In this document: positions 7,278 through 56,480 of the stretch, in pieces
How the letters are laid out: every line of letters starts with the position of its first letter
How positions within the stretch are numbered: the stretch's first letter is position 1
Source: Eledone cirrhosa
Taxonomy: Eukaryota
Reading direction: 5' to 3'
Assembly (NCBI GenBank): GCA_964016885.1
Contig: OZ024756.1
Location: 32,364,001 to 32,428,000 of the forward strand
DNA: 64,000 bases
Translations under genes and position numbers: made by a program
The notes under the pieces: model-generated
What the model saw: only the letters and a program-made list of their open reading frames with translations
Database searches by the model: none
Told to the model about the DNA's origin: nothing

Positions 7278-7883
7278 GCATACGCACAGAAACGCACACA
7301 CACGTATACACGCACACATATATATGTATATATATCCCATATAGCAAATATGTATTTTTGTATTGCTTATATATGTTTGCATTAACATGTTAACATGGCA
7401 CCATCACCTGCCAAGTTGTAATATCAGACATTATAACAAGTTGATCTTTGTATATACACGATGGAATTGGAAATTTAACATTCCTCTATTAAATAATTCT
7501 TTATGTCAGAATTGATATATCGTGCTTTACATAAACTCATAATCTGAGTTTTAGAAATTCTTTGACAGCATTCTTCTATATTATAGTAGTGTTTCTAAAC
7601 CTTTTCTTTGCCTCCTTTTATTTAAATGAAAATGTTTTCACATGTCCCCACCGCTTCACACATTTTTTTAAACATCGAAAATAATAATGTTTCTAGTTTT
7701 GACACACGACCAGCAATGACTCCAATGCACTACTGGTACTTTATTTTATCGCTATTTCAGAGCATTTATTCCAATTTCTAATTTCTGCCGGACCGGCAAC
7801 CGCTCTTTCAAACCAGTTCCTGTACACAGCTAAGTATTCTATAAGTCTCTAGCTGTGTCATTCTCGATAAAAGCACTGGATAT

Positions 7884-7926
7884 GTAGTCCTGATGATTTC
7901 TAACAAGAATGAAACGCGTAGATTAC
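7884..7926 (+). ncRNA. Minimal type I hammerhead ribozyme
   Basis: GTAGTC-CTGATGA-T-TTCT-AACA-AGAA-T-GAAA-CGCG-TA-GATTAC. Helix I GTAGTC/GATTAC, intact core, palindromic CGCG at helix III. Confidence 0.9.
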
Positions 7927-8193
7927 TTCCCTTGCTTTTATCGAGAATCTAATTGTAATACGTGACGTATTCTATTCTATAGCGATTAGGTCTTCAAAAT
8001 GTTTATTATAAACATACAGAATATTTTCGAATATTCTATGTCTATATTCACATATATATCGCTATTTCAGAGCATTTATTCCAATTTCTAATTTCTGCCG
8101 GACCGGCAACCGCTCTTTCAAACCAGTTCCTGTACACAGCTAAGTATTCTATAAGTCTCTAGCTGTGTCATTCTCGATAAAAGCACTGGATAT

Positions 8194-8236
8194 GTAGTCC
8201 TGATGATTTCTAACAAGAATGAAACGCGTAGATTAC
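8194..8236 (+). ncRNA. Minimal type I hammerhead ribozyme (second tandem copy)
   Basis: Identical to 7884-7926, offset by 310 bp. Confidence 0.9.
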
Positions 8237-8514
8237 TTCCCTTGCTTTTATCGAGAATCTAATTGTAATACGTGACGTATTCTATTCTATAGCGATTAGG
8301 TCTTCAAAATGTTTATTATAAACATACAGAATATTTTCGAATATTCTATGTCTATATTCATATATATATATATATATATATATAATTGTTTTGGGATGCT
8401 TAAAGCATTGTTTCCAACAAATTATATATCCCTTCTACTTATATATATATAAGTAGAATAATCAAAGCGGTAGGCCGTTTGAGCACGCACACGATGCTCT
8501 TGCAGATTCTACGC

Positions 8515-8723: not shown

Positions 8724-8785
8724 TTTCATTATATATATTTCAGGGATAACATATTAACAATACGCTATGCCTTCCTCAGACAAAA
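8724..8785 (-). ncRNA. Type I hammerhead ribozyme (inverted relative of 9065-9122)
   Basis: Reverse complement: TTTTGT-CTGAGGA-AGG-CATAGC...GTTAT-C-CCT-GAAA-TATATA-TA-ATGAAA. Confidence 0.75.
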
Positions 8786-27907: not shown

Positions 27908-27954
27908 TACGTTATTCCGGGTTGAGTCGGAGGTAACCACATTGCAGAGTATAA

Positions 27955-28090
27955 AAGTTTTAATATAGATGAGATTCTACAGGACTAGAACTGTTTCATT
28001 CTTTAGAAATCATCACGAATCTCAGAGATTCCTGGTGATTTCTAAAGAATGAAACAGTTCTAGTCCTGTAGAATCTCATCTATATTAAAA

Positions 28091-28093
<3 letters not shown>
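27955..28093. repeat. Palindrome made of two back-to-back hammerhead ribozyme copies
   Basis: Plus arm 28025-28077: GAGATTC-CTGGTGA-TTTC-TAAA-GAAT-GAAA-CAG-TTCTAGTC-CTG-TA-GAATCTC. Minus arm 27971-28023 is the same but with core GTGATGA. Confidence 0.9.
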
Positions 28094-28165
<72 letters not shown>

Positions 28166-29871: not shown

Positions 29872-29902
<31 letters not shown>

Positions 29903-29913
29903 AATGTAAGTAT

Positions 29914-29956
29914 ACGGTGCTGATGATAGCTAACAAGCTTGAAACTAGTACATCGT
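29914..29956 (+). ncRNA. Minimal type I hammerhead ribozyme
   Basis: ACGGTG-CTGATGA-T-AGCT-AACA-AGCT-T-GAAA-CTAG-TA-CATCGT. Confidence 0.9.
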
Positions 29957-30107
29957 TCCTGTGTCAGTGTTGAACAAAAAGGTGACGTGGTTGCCTTAAC
30001 ACCGTACGGCATAAATTCAGGCTGTTCAGTTTGTTTACAAACGAACAAAGCGGGCGTTATAATAAGCGTACGCTAAACTGATACGTACATATATGTATGT
30101 GTACCTG

Positions 30108-30156
<49 letters not shown>

Positions 30157-30285
30157 GAAAAAAAAAAATGAAAACGAAATTTCATTTCTCACTCTTAGTA
30201 TGGCACTTACTTAAATGTAAGTATGTATGTATACGTACATACATATATGTATACATGCTCCGTTCAACTATCTGGCAGATGGGTA

Positions 30286-30330
30286 AACGGTGCTGATGAT
30301 AGCTAACAAGCTTGAAACTAGTACATCGTT
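30286..30330 (+). ncRNA. Minimal type I hammerhead ribozyme
   Basis: AACGGTG-CTGATGA-T-AGCT-AACA-AGCT-T-GAAA-CTAG-TA-CATCGTT. 7-bp helix I, palindromic CTAG at helix III. Confidence 0.92.
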
Positions 30331-30492
30331 CCTGTGTCAGTGTTGAACAAAAAGGTGACGTGGTTGCCTTAACACCGTATGGCATAAATTCAGGCTGTTC
30401 GCTTTGTTGACAAACAAACGAACAAAGCGGCCGGCGTTATAATAAACGTAGGCTAAACTGATGCGTGCATATATGTATGTGTACCTGTATGC

Positions 30493-30550
<58 letters not shown>

Positions 30551-30805
30551 ATATATATATATATGTGCATGCTACTGTACGTCTGTATACATATATGTAT
30601 GTACGTATACATACATACTTACATTTAAGTAAGTGCCATACTAAGAGTGAGAAATGAAATTTCGTTTTCATTTTTTTTTCAACTAATCGTTTTCGGTATG
30701 CCTGACCGATTTAACTCACTCAATATGCAAATTAGGCTGCTCAGCCGTTAATTTTCATAAGGAAAGTATATACTTTCGAACGTTCAACTATCTGGCAGAT
30801 GGGTA

Positions 30806-30850
30806 AACGGTGCTGATGATAGCTAACAAGCTTGAAACTAGTACATCGTT
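30806..30850 (+). ncRNA. Minimal type I hammerhead ribozyme
   Basis: Identical to 30286-30330, offset by 520 bp. Confidence 0.92.
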
Positions 30851-31012
30851 CCTGTGTCAGTGTTGAACAAAAAGGTGACGTGGTTGCCTTAACACCGTAT
30901 GGCATAAATTCAGGCTGTTCGCTTTGTTGACAAACAAACGAACAAAGCGGCCGGCGTTATAATAAACGTAGGCTAAACTGATGCGTGCATATATGTATGT
31001 GTACCTGTATGC

Positions 31013-31060
<48 letters not shown>

Positions 31061-31318
31061 ATATATATATATATGTGCATGCTACTGTACGTCTGTATAC
31101 ATATATGTATGTACGTATACATACATACTTACATTTAAGTAAGTGCCATACTAAGAGTGAGAAATGAAATTTCGTTTTCATTTTTTTTTTTTCAACTAAT
31201 CGTTTTCGGTATGCCTGACCGATTTAACTCACTCAATATGCAAATTAGGCTGCTCAGCCGTTAATTTTCATAAGGAAAGTATATACTTTCGAACGTTCAA
31301 CTATCTGGCAGATGGGTA

Positions 31319-31363
31319 AACGGTGCTGATGATAGCTAACAAGCTTGAAACTAGTACATCGTT
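31319..31363 (+). ncRNA. Minimal type I hammerhead ribozyme
   Basis: Identical to 30806-30850, offset by 513 bp. Confidence 0.92.
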
Positions 31364-31525
31364 CCTGTGTCAGTGTTGAACAAAAAGGTGACGTGGTTGC
31401 CTTAACACCGTATGGCATAAATTCAGGCTGTTCGCTTTGTTGACAAACAAACGAACAAAGCGGCCGGCGTTATAATAAACGTAGGCTAAACTGATGCGTG
31501 CATATATGTATGTGTACCTGTATGC

Positions 31526-31581
<56 letters not shown>

Positions 31582-31666
31582 ATATATATATATATGTGCA
31601 TGCTACTGTACGTCTGTATACATATATGTATGTACGTATACATACATACTTACATATATATATATA

Positions 31667-31697
<31 letters not shown>

Positions 31698-31812
31698 GCA
31701 TGCTACTGTACGTCTGTATACATATATGTATGTACGTATACATACATACTTACATTTAAGTAAGTGCCGTACTAAGAGTGAGAAATGAAATTTCGTTTTC
31801 ATTTTATTACAA

Positions 31813-31851
<39 letters not shown>

Positions 31852-39370: not shown

Positions 39371-39854
39371 ATTTACCTAAGATGAATTAATGTGAGGCTG
39401 CCTCTTTGCGAAGTATTTATCCGCAAAGAATAAAGAATGGAAAGGCTAGGCGCCGATCATCAATTCGAACCAAGGAAACAATATTTCAATTGGTTTTCAA
39501 TCTGCTTATACTGTCTGTTGGTTGCAATTCCTGGCAGACAACATTAAGATAAAAATCTTCTCCACCCACTCAATACTAAAAAAAAAAAAAAAAAAATTTT
39601 AAATATAATCAGATAATAAAAAAAAAGCTAGGATGGTCTCAGCTGGAATGTCTTTGATCATAGTTCTGCTTGATCAGCATTGACCTAACACTGCACGATA
39701 GCAGCAATAACTACTACTACTACTACTTACCTACTACTACTAAACCTAATACGACTACTACTAAAGCCACTACTACTACTACTACTACTACTGTTGATGA
39801 TGATGATGATGATGATGATACTTAGGCATCATGATGATGATACTTAGGCGTGTA

Positions 39855-40760
39855 TCTAAATAATTGTTTCTACTTTAGGCACAAGGCCAGCAATTACCCA
39901 GTACATTACTGGTACTTTATTTTATCGACCCCGTAAGGATGAAAGGCAAAGTTAACCTCGGCATCTAAATAATTGTTTCTACTTTAGGCACAAGGCCAGC
40001 AAATACCCAGTGCATTACTGGTACTTTATTTTATCGACCCCGTAAGGATGAAAGGCAAAGTCAACCTCGGCGGGACTTGAACTCAGATCGTAAAGGGACG
40101 TAACTATGCTGGAAAGCATGGCGTCCGACCCTCTACCGATACTGCCAATCCACCGCCTCGGCATCTAAATAATGGTACCTGATTTAGACACAAGGCCAAA
40201 AAATGTAGGGGAGGGGAAAATCGATTAAATCGACCCCAGTGCATTACTGGTAATTTATTTTATCAACCCCGTAAGGATAAAAGGCAAAGTTAACCTCGGC
40301 GCGATTTGAACTCAGACCATAAAGGGCTATAACTCTATGCTACAAATCATGGCGTCGGACGCTCTGCTGATTCTGCCAATCCACCGCACTTGCGTGTTTC
40401 TAAATTTGGCACAAGGCCAGCAATACCCAGTACATTACTGGTACTTTATTTTATCGACCCCGTAAGGATGAAAGACGAAGTTAACCTCGACGGGATCTGA
40501 ACTCAGACCGTAAAGGGACGTAACTATGCTAGAAAGCATGGCGTCCAACTCTCTGCCGATACTGCCAATCTAAATAATTGTTTCTACTATTGGCACAAGG
40601 CCAGCAAATTACCCAGTACATTACTGGTACTTTATTTTATCGACCCCGTAAGGATGAAAGGCAAAGTTAACCTCGGCGGGATTTGAACTCAGAATGGCAA
40701 GGGCCGTAACTCTATGCGTCAAAGCATGGCGTCCGTCCCTCTACCGATACTGCCAATTCA
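39855..40760 (-). mobile_element. Head-to-tail cluster of five SINE family 2 copies
   Basis: Unit boundaries near 39855, 39964, 40164, 40398 and 40570, mostly at (CA)TCTAAAT. Confidence 0.9.
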
Positions 40761-40989
40761 AACATCTGTGCGTGTATATTTAAATCAGTGAATCTTTACG
40801 CGTCTGTGAGCGCATGCTTGTGGATCAATCTGTGAGTGAATACACGTATATAGGCGCATCCGTGTGTATATGTGTGTATCCCTCTATGTGTCTGTGTGTG
40901 TGTGCAAGCTTTGTGTGTGGATGTCTTCCAAGCGTTTGGGTGATGTTTGTATACAAAAGTTTATTTATATTTCAGCGCTGATCCTTTCG

Positions 40990-48851: not shown

Positions 48852-49321
48852 ATGGTAGAAAAGCCAGGAACCACCATAAAATCCCTGATCAGCAACACCT
48901 ACCTTTTTAAGAAAACCCACTGTACTAATAGGAAATGTATCATATGTAAAGTAAACCCCCGGATAAACTGTAAAACTAGAAACGTAGTCTATAGCATAAG
49001 ATGTACAGAGGGTGCTTGCAGAAACATGACAACAACATACGCGAGACAGCTCGTAGCATAGGTGAAAGGATAGACCAACACTGGGGGGCACTAAAAAGAC
49101 GAAAAAACGGTTCAGTACTATACGAACATGCCAGACAACAACACGACGGTAACATAGACAACATAGAAATTAGAATAATATCTAAACATAGAAATGACCC
49201 AGCAGATAGGCAAATGAGAGAGGCCAGTGAAATAGAACTTAGAAAGCCAAGGCTAAACAGAAAAAATGAATGGAATAACAACAACACCCAAACAAACAAC
49301 ACTGACCTAAGAGAAGTATAA
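48852..49321 (+). pseudogene. Penelope-like element (Neptune-type) Cys-rich linker and GIY-YIG endonuclease, frameshifted
   Basis: HCTNRKCIICKVNPRINCKTRNVVYSIRCTEGACRNMTTTY / RETARSIGERIDQH...VLYEHARQQH...RQMREASEIELRKPRLNRKNEW. Shows the VVY..Y(IG)ET.R...R..H..E..LN signature, with a frameshift near 49040. Confidence 0.88.
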
Positions 49322-49574
49322 ATAAATAAATAGATAAATAAATAAATACACAAGCACAATAACAACAAACACATATAAACACACACTAGTAAAGATAGAA
49401 TACATTAACCAATACACAGTCACCCAATCACGAACACACATCAAACAAAACACTATACACACACGCAAACGCATGCGCAAAGAAGACAAAATAAAATAAA
49501 TAAATAAATAAATATATAAACAGACTAAATAAAGATGGCGTAGAAAATACAATGTAACGGGAGGAAACAATAGC

Positions 49575-49616
49575 ACCACTGACGATGTTGCAGATGTGCA
49601 ACGAAAGAACTTTGAT
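49575..49616 (+). ncRNA. Degenerate hammerhead ribozyme in the 3' pseudo-LTR of the Penelope-like element
   Basis: ACCA-CTGACGA-T-GTTGCA-GATG-TGCAAC-GAAA-GAAC-TT-TGAT, about 250 bp downstream of the GIY-YIG stop on the same strand. Confidence 0.7.
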
Positions 49617-49888
49617 AAACTATATATATGTGTTCGTGTCTATATTGTATCTGTGTTTTTGACCGTTGGTCAGTCAATGGCAACATTGAGGACCGAATAA
49701 ATTAAATTACCGATATAAAAGACACAGAAGCGAAAAGCGAAAACCAACCAAACAGTGAGTGTGTTCCGTTATTAATTCTGGCGATATTACACAAATATGA
49801 CCCTCCCCGAGTATAACTATATATATATGTACATATGTGAAAAAGAAAATTTCGCTCTACATGGCTGAATACAATAAATATAATCTGA

Positions 49889-55179: not shown

Positions 55180-56480
55180 GTGTAAATGACCAGATAGAGC
55201 ACATGCTAACGAGCAAATGACCAGGTACACTACACGATAATGTCTATATGATCTGTCAGACCAGACGCTAGGGAGTAAATGACCATGTAAACCACATGCT
55301 AATGTCTAAATGACCAGGTAGACTATTGTTAAAGTTTAACTGATCAGGATGACCACACCTAAAATGTAAATGACAATGGTTAGGGTTAGTTTTTTACAGC
55401 TGAGAGGCCACACCGCAAAGTTTAAATGACCAGGTAGACCACACGCTTATGTGTCAATGACCACATGCTTATGTGTGAAAGACCAGGTAGACCACATGCT
55501 AATGTGTGAAAAAGCAGGTAGACCACATGCTTATGTGTAAATGACCATGTAGACCAAACACTAAAATGTAACTGACCAGCTAGATTCGCGGTAGGGTGTA
55601 AATGACCAGGTAGACGAAACACTAAAATGTAAACGACCAGCTAGACTAGGAAGACAACACACTAAAATGTAACCGACCAGCTAAACTCATGCTTGACCAG
55701 GTAGACCACACACTAAAATATAACCGACCAGCTAGACTCATGCTTGACCAGGTAGACCACACACTAAAATGTAACCAACAAGCTAGACTCCCGCTTGACC
55801 AGGTAGACCACACACTAAAATGTAACCAACAAGCTAGACTCCCGCTTGACCAGGTAGACCACACACTAAAATGTAACCAACAATCTAGATTCCCGCTTGA
55901 TCAGGTAGACCACACACTAAAATGTAACCAACAAGCTAGACTCCCGCTTGACCAGGTAGACTACACACTAAAATGTAACCAACAAGCTAGACTCCCGCTT
56001 GACCAGGTAGACTACACACTAAAATGTAACCAACAAGCTAGACTCCCGCTTGACCAGGTAGACCACACACTAAAATGTAACCAACAAGCTAGATTCCCGC
56101 TTGACCAGGTAGACTACACACTAAAATGTAACCAACAAACTAGACTCCCGCTTGACCAGGTTCATGAAACACTAAAATGTAACCAACAAACTAGACTCCT
56201 GCTTGACCAGGTAGACCACACACTGAAATGTAACCAACAAGCTAGACTCCCGCTTGACCAGGTTTATGAAACACTAAAATGTAACCAACAAACTAGACTC
56301 CTGCTTGACCAGGTAGACCACACACTGAAATGTAACCAACAAGCTAGACTCCCGCTTGACCAGGTAGACCACACACTAAAATGTAACCAACAAGCTAGAC
56401 TCCCGCTTCACCAGGTAGATGAAACACTAACATGTAAACGACTAGTTAGACTCACGCTGGAGTGTAAATGACGAGATAGT
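55180..56480. repeat. 51-bp minisatellite (~15 copies, 55690-56460) preceded by degenerate ~30-bp units
   Basis: Unit GCTTGACCAGGTAGACCACACACTAAAATGTAACCAACAAGCTAGACTCCC. Confidence 0.95.

Follow-up and report, generated by a model that had tools for sequence, protein, structure and literature searches.

The closest described counterparts of the element reported here are the metazoan non-LTR retrozymes (Cervera and de la Pena, 2020; PMC7229834; here and below, statements on published systems refer to the accessible portions of the cited sources). These consist of tandem low-GC repeats of 170-400 bp with a type I hammerhead ribozyme (HHR), have no LTR, PBS, PPT or ORF, and coexist with Penelope-like elements (PLEs); our unit agrees with them in repeat size, GC content and ribozyme type, in lacking LTR structure and an ORF, and in sharing its genome with PLE-like elements. 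Their sequences are genome-specific, and circles have been shown for them, whereas in our family circles are only predicted. In one of them, the axolotl HHR_Amex2, helix II has a U·U at its base as in our unit, and the ribozyme cleaves better as a dimer. Mobilisation of the circles by PLEs was hypothesised in the same work, the main text of which, supplement aside, holds no inverted two-armed insertions, fixed outer ends (sites A and B below) or (TA)n targeting.

The EN+ PLEs (PMC8557442, PMC3846280, PMC11167929) resemble our family in the form of their insertions: an inverted, 5'-truncated copy placed head-to-head, a 30-40 bp tail at one end and microsatellite targets make up their described structure (see also 10.1101/2021.04.23.441226). 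The anole Poseidon protein, a predicted dimer, cuts AT-rich DNA on both strands; in vitro, reverse transcription (RT) starts at two internal sites, the spacing of which equals the tail, and the HHR lies upstream of both sites, a layout with which that of our family agrees (PMC11167929). The same work saw no difference in start site between strands, a point against the model put forward below. In contrast to PLEs, the 310-bp family has no RT/EN ORF and repeats whole units many times on both arms. Non-autonomous Chlamys elements such as MRC1 are likewise non-coding PLE dependants with multicopy head-to-tail insertions; however, these elements have 3' sequence in common with autonomous families and most Chlamys lack HHRs (PMC8557442). 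A preprint on Xenopus retrozymes from PLE pLTRs (bioRxiv 10.64898/2026.07.22.740005) proposes that non-LTR retrozymes originate from PLEs and, as is done here, that PLEs mobilise them. Its evidence is co-occurrence and pLTR homology, and it suggests local tandem amplification, whereas the evidence here is an insertion footprint that points to multimers made at insertion.

The locus lies in a 64,000-nt stretch of contig OZ024756.1 of Eledone cirrhosa (the window). Positions 7747-8360 hold 1.98 copies of a 310-bp unit, and the array is short of two full units (Table 1). The earlier note had read two essentially identical 310-bp units here, and rightly so: one position in 310 differs between the copies (8051 C versus 8361 T), and this sole difference falls where unit 2 stops, at 8360 (unit position 304), to be followed by (TA)n. 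The 5' junction has a 5-nt microhomology, TATCG (7747-7751), with an older dispersed repeat, presumably SINE-like; a cluster of partial tandem copies of that repeat occupies 39854-40765 of the window. Elsewhere in the window, a 51-bp minisatellite of 16 copies spans 55640-56458, its plus strand being open for 273 codons. The unit has 106/310 G+C (34%) and falls within the range of non-LTR retrozymes (~150-450 bp, GC <50%). On the sense strand the window ORF scan gave no ORF of at least 90 aa at 7747-8360, the RT and GIY-YIG ORF of an autonomous PLE is absent from the same interval, and the insertion ends are A/B sites rather than LTRs, with no LTR structure. The copy has its A end in (TA)n and is devoid of a second, inverted arm, as are nine other one-armed arrays. 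With two units and a truncated 5' end, the window locus belongs to a young family of non-LTR retrozymes. Its dimeric state, taken by the earlier note as the form of the element, is that of a truncated array; it is the shortest form with two ribozymes left, and hence might release a monomer.

Table 1. Features of the window locus (window coordinates; cleavage, pairing and start-domain entries are predictions).
Feature	Position	Strand	Remark
Older copy of dispersed, presumably SINE-like repeat	7679..7751	.	truncated by insertion; ~85% identity to other copies
Retrozyme unit 1	7747..8056	+	310 bp; unit position 1 = 7747; 5'-truncated insertion end
Clamp 5' arm, 16 bp	7860..7875	+	second copy 8170-8185
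CT-GGA-TAT, 5' side of two internal loops and 3-bp stem	7876..7883	+	partners 7927-7932
Type I hammerhead 1	7884..7926	+	predicted cleavage between 7920 and 7921
Helix I	7884-7889 / 7921-7926	+	GTAGTC / GATTAC
Core CTGATGA	7890-7896	+
Helix II	7897-7910	+	T·T at base
GAAA	7911-7914	+	followed, past the palindrome, by A17 at 7920
Palindrome ACGCGT (helix III)	7914..7919	+	predicted partner 8224-8229 in double hammerhead
Predicted 310-nt monomer from two cleavages	7921..8230	+	ends paired via helix I and clamp
Clamp 3' arm, 16 bp	7933..7948	+	second copy 8243-8258
Inferred reverse-transcription start domain	7979..8092	+	stem 7979-7986/8058-8065; role by analogy to PMC11167929
Sites A and B within start domain	A 8050; B 8085-8092	+
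Retrozyme unit 2, positions 1-304	8057..8360	+	stops at the family's fixed 3' end A
Type I hammerhead 2	8194..8236	+	predicted cleavage between 8230 and 8231
(TA)n target tract, 3' junction	8361..8384	+

The canonical metazoan type I HHR has a helix I of 6 bp, a helix II of 4 bp and a short palindromic helix III (1-2 bp), while the min-HHR of PLEs has a helix II of 7-8 bp, a helix I of 4-5 bp and an extra base between 9 and 10.1 (PMC4209133). Our unit has the features of the former, intact core included, and not those of the latter; hence, 'minimal', as the earlier note had it, is not the fitting term. Judged from its sequence, the ribozyme belongs to the canonical metazoan type I HHRs; its palindromic helix III is weak, and it is predicted to work as a dimer. 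It differs from the PLE min-HHR with its long helix II in having a 4-bp helix II and loops 1 and 2, the latter better read as a TAACAA hexaloop. The best Rfam match of the unit, HH9, is weak (19.2 bits, E 0.11, under the gathering score of 52), and the best 150 matches of a whole-window Rfam scan comprise only microsatellite-driven miRNA-type matches.

The two clamp arms are exact reverse complements over 16 bp, as against a best perfect stem of 11 bp (mean 7.7) in 200 shuffles of the unit. The earlier note had described a perfect stem that extends helix I beyond one internal loop: the stem stands, but the intervening region has two internal loops, TAT/T (which is loop 1) and CT/CT, with a 3-bp GGA/TCC stem. 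Left unconstrained, 7860-8258 folds at minimum energy into the double hammerhead (-109.3 kcal/mol versus -101.0 for two single folds), the predicted monomer folds at -72.5 (linear) and -67.8 kcal/mol (circular), and a folding z of -3.85 was obtained for 7922-8231, a span near-identical to it. The release of a 310-nt monomer by the dimer, claimed earlier, stands as a prediction. As the predicted fold pairs the ends of the monomer via helix I and clamp, the clamp is better read as a stem that would close these ends, well placed for ligation, and would stabilise the double hammerhead. Only one of nine predicted Xenopus dimers was cleaved in vitro (Li et al. preprint), and a predicted hammerhead is hence no guarantee of activity.

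A genome-wide search (3.0 Gb, 1,796 contigs) with a 33-nt degenerate ribozyme pattern, the copy-number check that had been proposed, yielded 17,771 exact matches against none for the reversed control; another ribozyme pattern gave 14,718, its control likewise none. The family makes up ~5.5 Mb of the genome, and we estimate ~1,900 very young insertions (17,771 units at ~9.2 per insertion). Its members are dispersed, multicopy and range from dimers to multimers, with a type I HHR in each unit, as in non-LTR retrozymes at large. The unit occurs in sequencing runs from four studies, and in three of the four runs examined a contig crosses the unit-to-unit junction without mismatch. Contigs of 340 nt (310 + 30) were found in three runs of unknown kind (X1, X3, X6), and would arise from tandem DNA as readily as from a circle; among the listed runs with the unit there is no RNA run.

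Conservation of the ribozyme was gauged in 22 hand-picked examples: six from this family, 11 from a sister group, four from a family at ~30 kb of the window and one from a 468-bp family. Pairs were counted from a motif-anchored parse and, since the sequences are related and were picked by a pairing filter, the counts are supportive rather than a formal test. Helices I and II have several pair types at every position; C3-G8 becomes U3-A8, a known active covariation (PMC3088659), in eight; an exactly palindromic helix III occurs in 13; and a long distal stem is present in each, its sequence differing between families. Where pairing fails the bases are T·T: in six at one position of helix I, in nine at the base of helix II. 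Across 98 loci of the 310-bp family no variant is fixed in the 11 scored core positions, where four singletons occur. Loops 1 and 2 form an architecture common to four ribozyme groups of the genome, which makes a tertiary contact between them plausible. That the AACA loop recurs in the 30-kb family holds, TAACAA being the loop 2 of both, but neither this loop nor the T-T mismatch is invariant in the 310-bp family: among the 98 insertions TAACGA is fixed in 32 and TAATAA in 15, and A-T replaces the T·T in 19. These features and the dimer are already known or variable, the U·U being present in the axolotl ribozyme.

The 30-kb family (29900-31850 of the window) is indeed unrelated, as had been proposed, its likeness being limited to a 37-nt ribozyme match and TA-rich noise. 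Its ribozyme has loop 1 and the TAACAA loop in common with our unit, and its helix III (ACTAGT) is likewise palindromic. At 30117-30254 a short inverted arm precedes a plus-strand array ending in (TA)n at ~31815, and this family hence likely uses the same insertion route as the 310-bp family. Several further groups were noted: 1) sister retrozyme subfamilies (L161-L190, L283-L302) with 316-318 bp units and ~2,400 motif matches; a U3-A8 core and a helix III of 10-13 nt mark some of them, and an older 312-bp variant of the 310-bp family occurs in L283 and L287. 2) The 468-bp tandem ribozyme family (L121:474-2942), with a G-C closed helix II, TAACAA loop and inverted arms. 3) Hammerhead-like motifs with a long helix II and TATATA loop 3 at window positions 8779 (-), 9071 (+), 50755 (+) and 19031 (-), a type that recurs in many loci (e.g. 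L119, L123, L124, L247). 4) Another short HHR-like family at ~27950-28100 and 19331 (-) of the window and in L107, L129, L135, L151 and L179; it has a TTTC/GAAT helix II with the same T·T, a longer helix III, and small inverted pairs in (TA)n with one short and one long end.

As an element, the repeat is nothing unusual among the non-LTR retrozymes, a known class; its value lies in the family-wide insertion footprint. A typical insertion consists of two head-to-head tandem arms in (TA)n; the first ten arrays, picked by the ribozyme alone, show a minus arm followed by a plus arm, their 5' ends meeting, mostly inside (TA)n. The outer ends fall at two sites: site A, at unit positions 292-3 (mode 304), and site B, at 18-36 (mode 29), ~35 nt further on. 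Exact junctions with (TA)n number 676 for A and 1,173 for B. Divergent end pairs among the matches listed for the first 248 Mb of contig C1, on which all examined arrays of the family are located, are A+B in 41/41, with neither A+A nor B+B. At the loci examined, A+B was found in all 79 insertions of which two arms and both outer ends could be seen; 38 of these had been pre-selected as pairs and 41 had not. A second set of 40 loci picked by the A end only gave A+B in 34/34, five others being one-armed and one running off the stretch. Combined, the tally of A+B is 113 of 113 such insertions, 75 of them picked by ribozyme or one end only, and each presents an inverted 5'-truncated copy, a 30-40 nt tail on one end and a microsatellite target. 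Left out of these counts were a duplicate L203 row, L143 and L280 (off the stretch), L033 (N), one of two identical L254 copies and, dropped beforehand, nine one-armed arrays (L038, L128, L136, L152, L253, L260, L264, L269, L273); L275 was omitted from the junction count alone. A crude classifier finds A+B in most two-armed loci of the sister group too; inspection of apparent exceptions showed L287 and L292 to be A+B, while in L295 one end lies at B and the other at neither site. One insertion (L034) has an 11-bp target duplication, as against 8-10 bp in Adineta PLEs. Two oddities were met on the way: a 272-bp GC-rich unrelated sequence captured between the arms at L037:3099-3370, with no match in the other loci examined, and a different ~600-bp tandem repeat ending in (TA)n directly beside a retrozyme insertion (L040:5000-6390).

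By analogy with the spacing of the anole start sites, the ~35-nt offset from A to B would be the PLE 'tail'. The inferred start domain contains the conserved motifs GGTCTTCAAAATG and GCTATTTCAGAGC; an internal AUAUAUAU adjoins site A and could pair with a TA primer, and site B falls in a stretch that the fold predicts to be unpaired. From this family-wide footprint we regard twin priming of the PLE type as highly probable.

The arms also keep a record of their template. They average 4-5 units, with a maximum of 27. Of 162 5' ends, 3 are found no more than 6 nt from the cleavage site (~6 expected if uniform), which indicates that the template is not a cleaved linear monomer. Over the unit their distribution departs from uniformity (chi-square p = 0.002), a point against the reading preferred here. 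Among 98 loci with at least three full units (914 units) we counted 34 haplotypes and 151 singleton differences, which, along with the lack of an ORF on the sense strand, supports the earlier view of a young non-autonomous element. Both arms carry one haplotype in 68/70 loci, as against 12% for random pairs; of the two exceptions L242 represents two separate insertions and L151 a real switch within an arm. Of the 34 fixed variants 17 are confined to a single locus. One haplotype per locus with private fixed variants is what a monomer bottleneck predicts. Clean inversion junctions number 82, and 51 of them have microhomology of at least 2 nt (18% expected); inserted bases occur at 30 of 112 arm-to-arm junctions. 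The simplest reading is that two target-primed cDNAs are drawn off one endless monomer-length template, namely a circle, and then joined; a circular template is, in our judgement, probable.

The main rival keeps the PLE-type twin-primed insertion but has the enzyme copy a long linear transcript, left uncleaved, from a young array of uniform units, with the ribozyme a passenger or serving another step. In its favour, HHR cleavage is dispensable in the anole PLE, where HHR mutants inserted normally and uncut RNA was the main template in vitro (PMC11167929). It also fits the mosaic arrays, in which a variant is limited to a subset of the units (L035/36, L037, L134, L143, L256, L257, L277, L280, L281), and the haplotype switch of L151, which one circle does not explain. 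Against it, new variants, half of them private to a locus, are fixed in every unit of both arms, several loci of 16-22 units have a single unit sequence throughout (L127, L138, L157), and covariation preserves the core, helices and clamp from one subfamily to another, implying selection on cleavage and end pairing. On balance we consider a long uncut template unlikely.

Subset variants also bear on the proposal that short insertions, either monomers or pLTR-like, grow in place into minisatellite arrays by unequal crossing-over or slippage (bioRxiv 10.64898/2026.07.22.740005). Four variants occupy periodic subsets in L280 (at least 28.9 units), a period-7 pattern is present in L035/36 and a duplicated block in L254. 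Periodic variants in the long arrays of L280, L035-L036 and L143 likely stem from local duplication after insertion. However, such variants occur in just 10 of the 98 loci, the two-insertion locus L242 set aside; private variants are common to opposite arms; and both arms are usually multimeric with independent lengths (Spearman 0.19, p = 0.085). The ten loci show that local duplication or template switching also occurs, and growth in place as the origin of the arrays is very improbable. We hold it equally improbable that reverse transcription made one arm and fold-back DNA synthesis on the first cDNA the inverted one. That scheme would account for the haplotype common to both arms, self-priming has been suggested for PLE inverted repeats (PMC3846280) and a few junctions lie inside the clamp (L034, L142), but the junction positions of the two arms are not mirror images, either arm can be the longer (A in 19, B in 18 of 38 typed pairs) and the two outer ends are always different sites. 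An assembly artefact or chance core match, to which near-identical units (which may collapse and so distort the unit count at this one locus) and the lack of an examined contig across the whole array would lend themselves, has a negligible chance of being true in view of the 17,771 copies against a control of none, the covariation, and the unit and its junction in runs of other studies.

A-to-I editing of the template was entertained as a further source of variants and not accepted. A>G makes up 8/30 fixed substitutions versus 8/101 singletons (p = 0.011; polarity is relative to the window copy, and the test was picked after the data were seen); a second set had A>G in none of six new fixed variants and the excess was not replicated. 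The A>G fixed variants lie at unit positions 22, 80, 82, 123, 140, 159, 176 and 194.

Returning to the circular template, we judge with fair assurance that a Penelope-like RT/endonuclease copies the predicted 310-nt RNA circle by rolling-circle synthesis into both (TA)n strands. The cycle would start from what is observed, dispersed tandem arrays with an intact hammerhead in every unit. A transcript of at least two units is predicted to form the double hammerhead via the ACGCGT palindrome and be cut at the two sites of Table 1; helix I and the 16-bp clamp would keep the two ends of the monomer in contact, and the circle may then be sealed by a ligase of the host, of RtcB type, in the way reported for axolotl and mussel retrozymes. 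A PLE protein, likely a dimer, would nick both (TA)n strands; one cDNA would start at site A beside the internal AUAUAUAU and the other at B, ~35 nt downstream on the same RNA, each RT rounding the template up to ~27 times. Finally, the two cDNA ends would join by microhomology, giving the head-to-head insertions that are observed. The window dimer would be a one-armed product, its cDNA end joined to the flank via TATCG. For the most specific version, a dimeric Penelope-type enzyme that starts two RTs 35 nt apart on one circle, one per target strand, for up to ~27 turns, we see even chances.

Potential sources of such an enzyme abound: first-look candidates with PLE-like RT and GIY-YIG ORFs number 24,143 and 50,056 in two families. 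Their PLE and clade labels are presumptive and follow characteristic motifs and one weak match to RVT_1. Copies of family 1 terminate in (TA)n as well, some with a tail and others without; the 1,213-aa ORF of this family in L123 has the weak RVT_1 match (E 7e-05) and no endonuclease match in Pfam or PDB. A 3' fragment of an abundant PLE-like family with a GIY-YIG-like C-terminus and an HHR-like motif in its 3' region lies at 48995-49830 of the window, and ORFs of this family (946-1,213 aa, with an Asn-rich stretch) occur in L121-L123. As partners by sequence, families 1 and 2, a Neptune-like element near L033 and L040 (in L033 an N run separates it from the array) and the 3' regions of 15 other ORFs were set aside, since inspection showed nothing in them that resembles the unit. 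No pLTR homology was seen in the PLE-like 3' regions covered, a partial survey of the PLE families of the genome, and a motif search for a third sequence context returned only further retrozyme subfamilies.

In the literature searched, most subscription papers and a key supplement lying outside it, we found no description of the A/B footprint for retrozymes or of the 310-bp family, and a 2026 octopus repeat annotation (PMC13282606) gave no match for 'ribozyme'. Copying of retrozymes by PLEs through a rolling circle had been proposed earlier and, in the literature found, has not been traced in genomes. The enzyme that moves animal retrozymes, and the role of the circle as its template, are a matter of hypothesis in PMC7229834 and still an outstanding question in the 2026 preprint, as far as these sources go; likewise, the PLE cycle behind inverted copies and tails is described in the literature as undefined. 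With an estimated ~1,900 young insertions of one 310-nt RNA, the family provides a large record of a probable PLE-type reaction, with ends that are strictly one A and one B, a single haplotype for each event and joins by microhomology, and both questions hence become testable with a short defined RNA. If a dimeric enzyme does act on a circle as proposed, this would explain at once the retrozyme arrays, the one-end PLE tail and the head-to-head inversions of PLEs, and the family would offer a 310-nt natural substrate for rolling-circle target-primed insertion.
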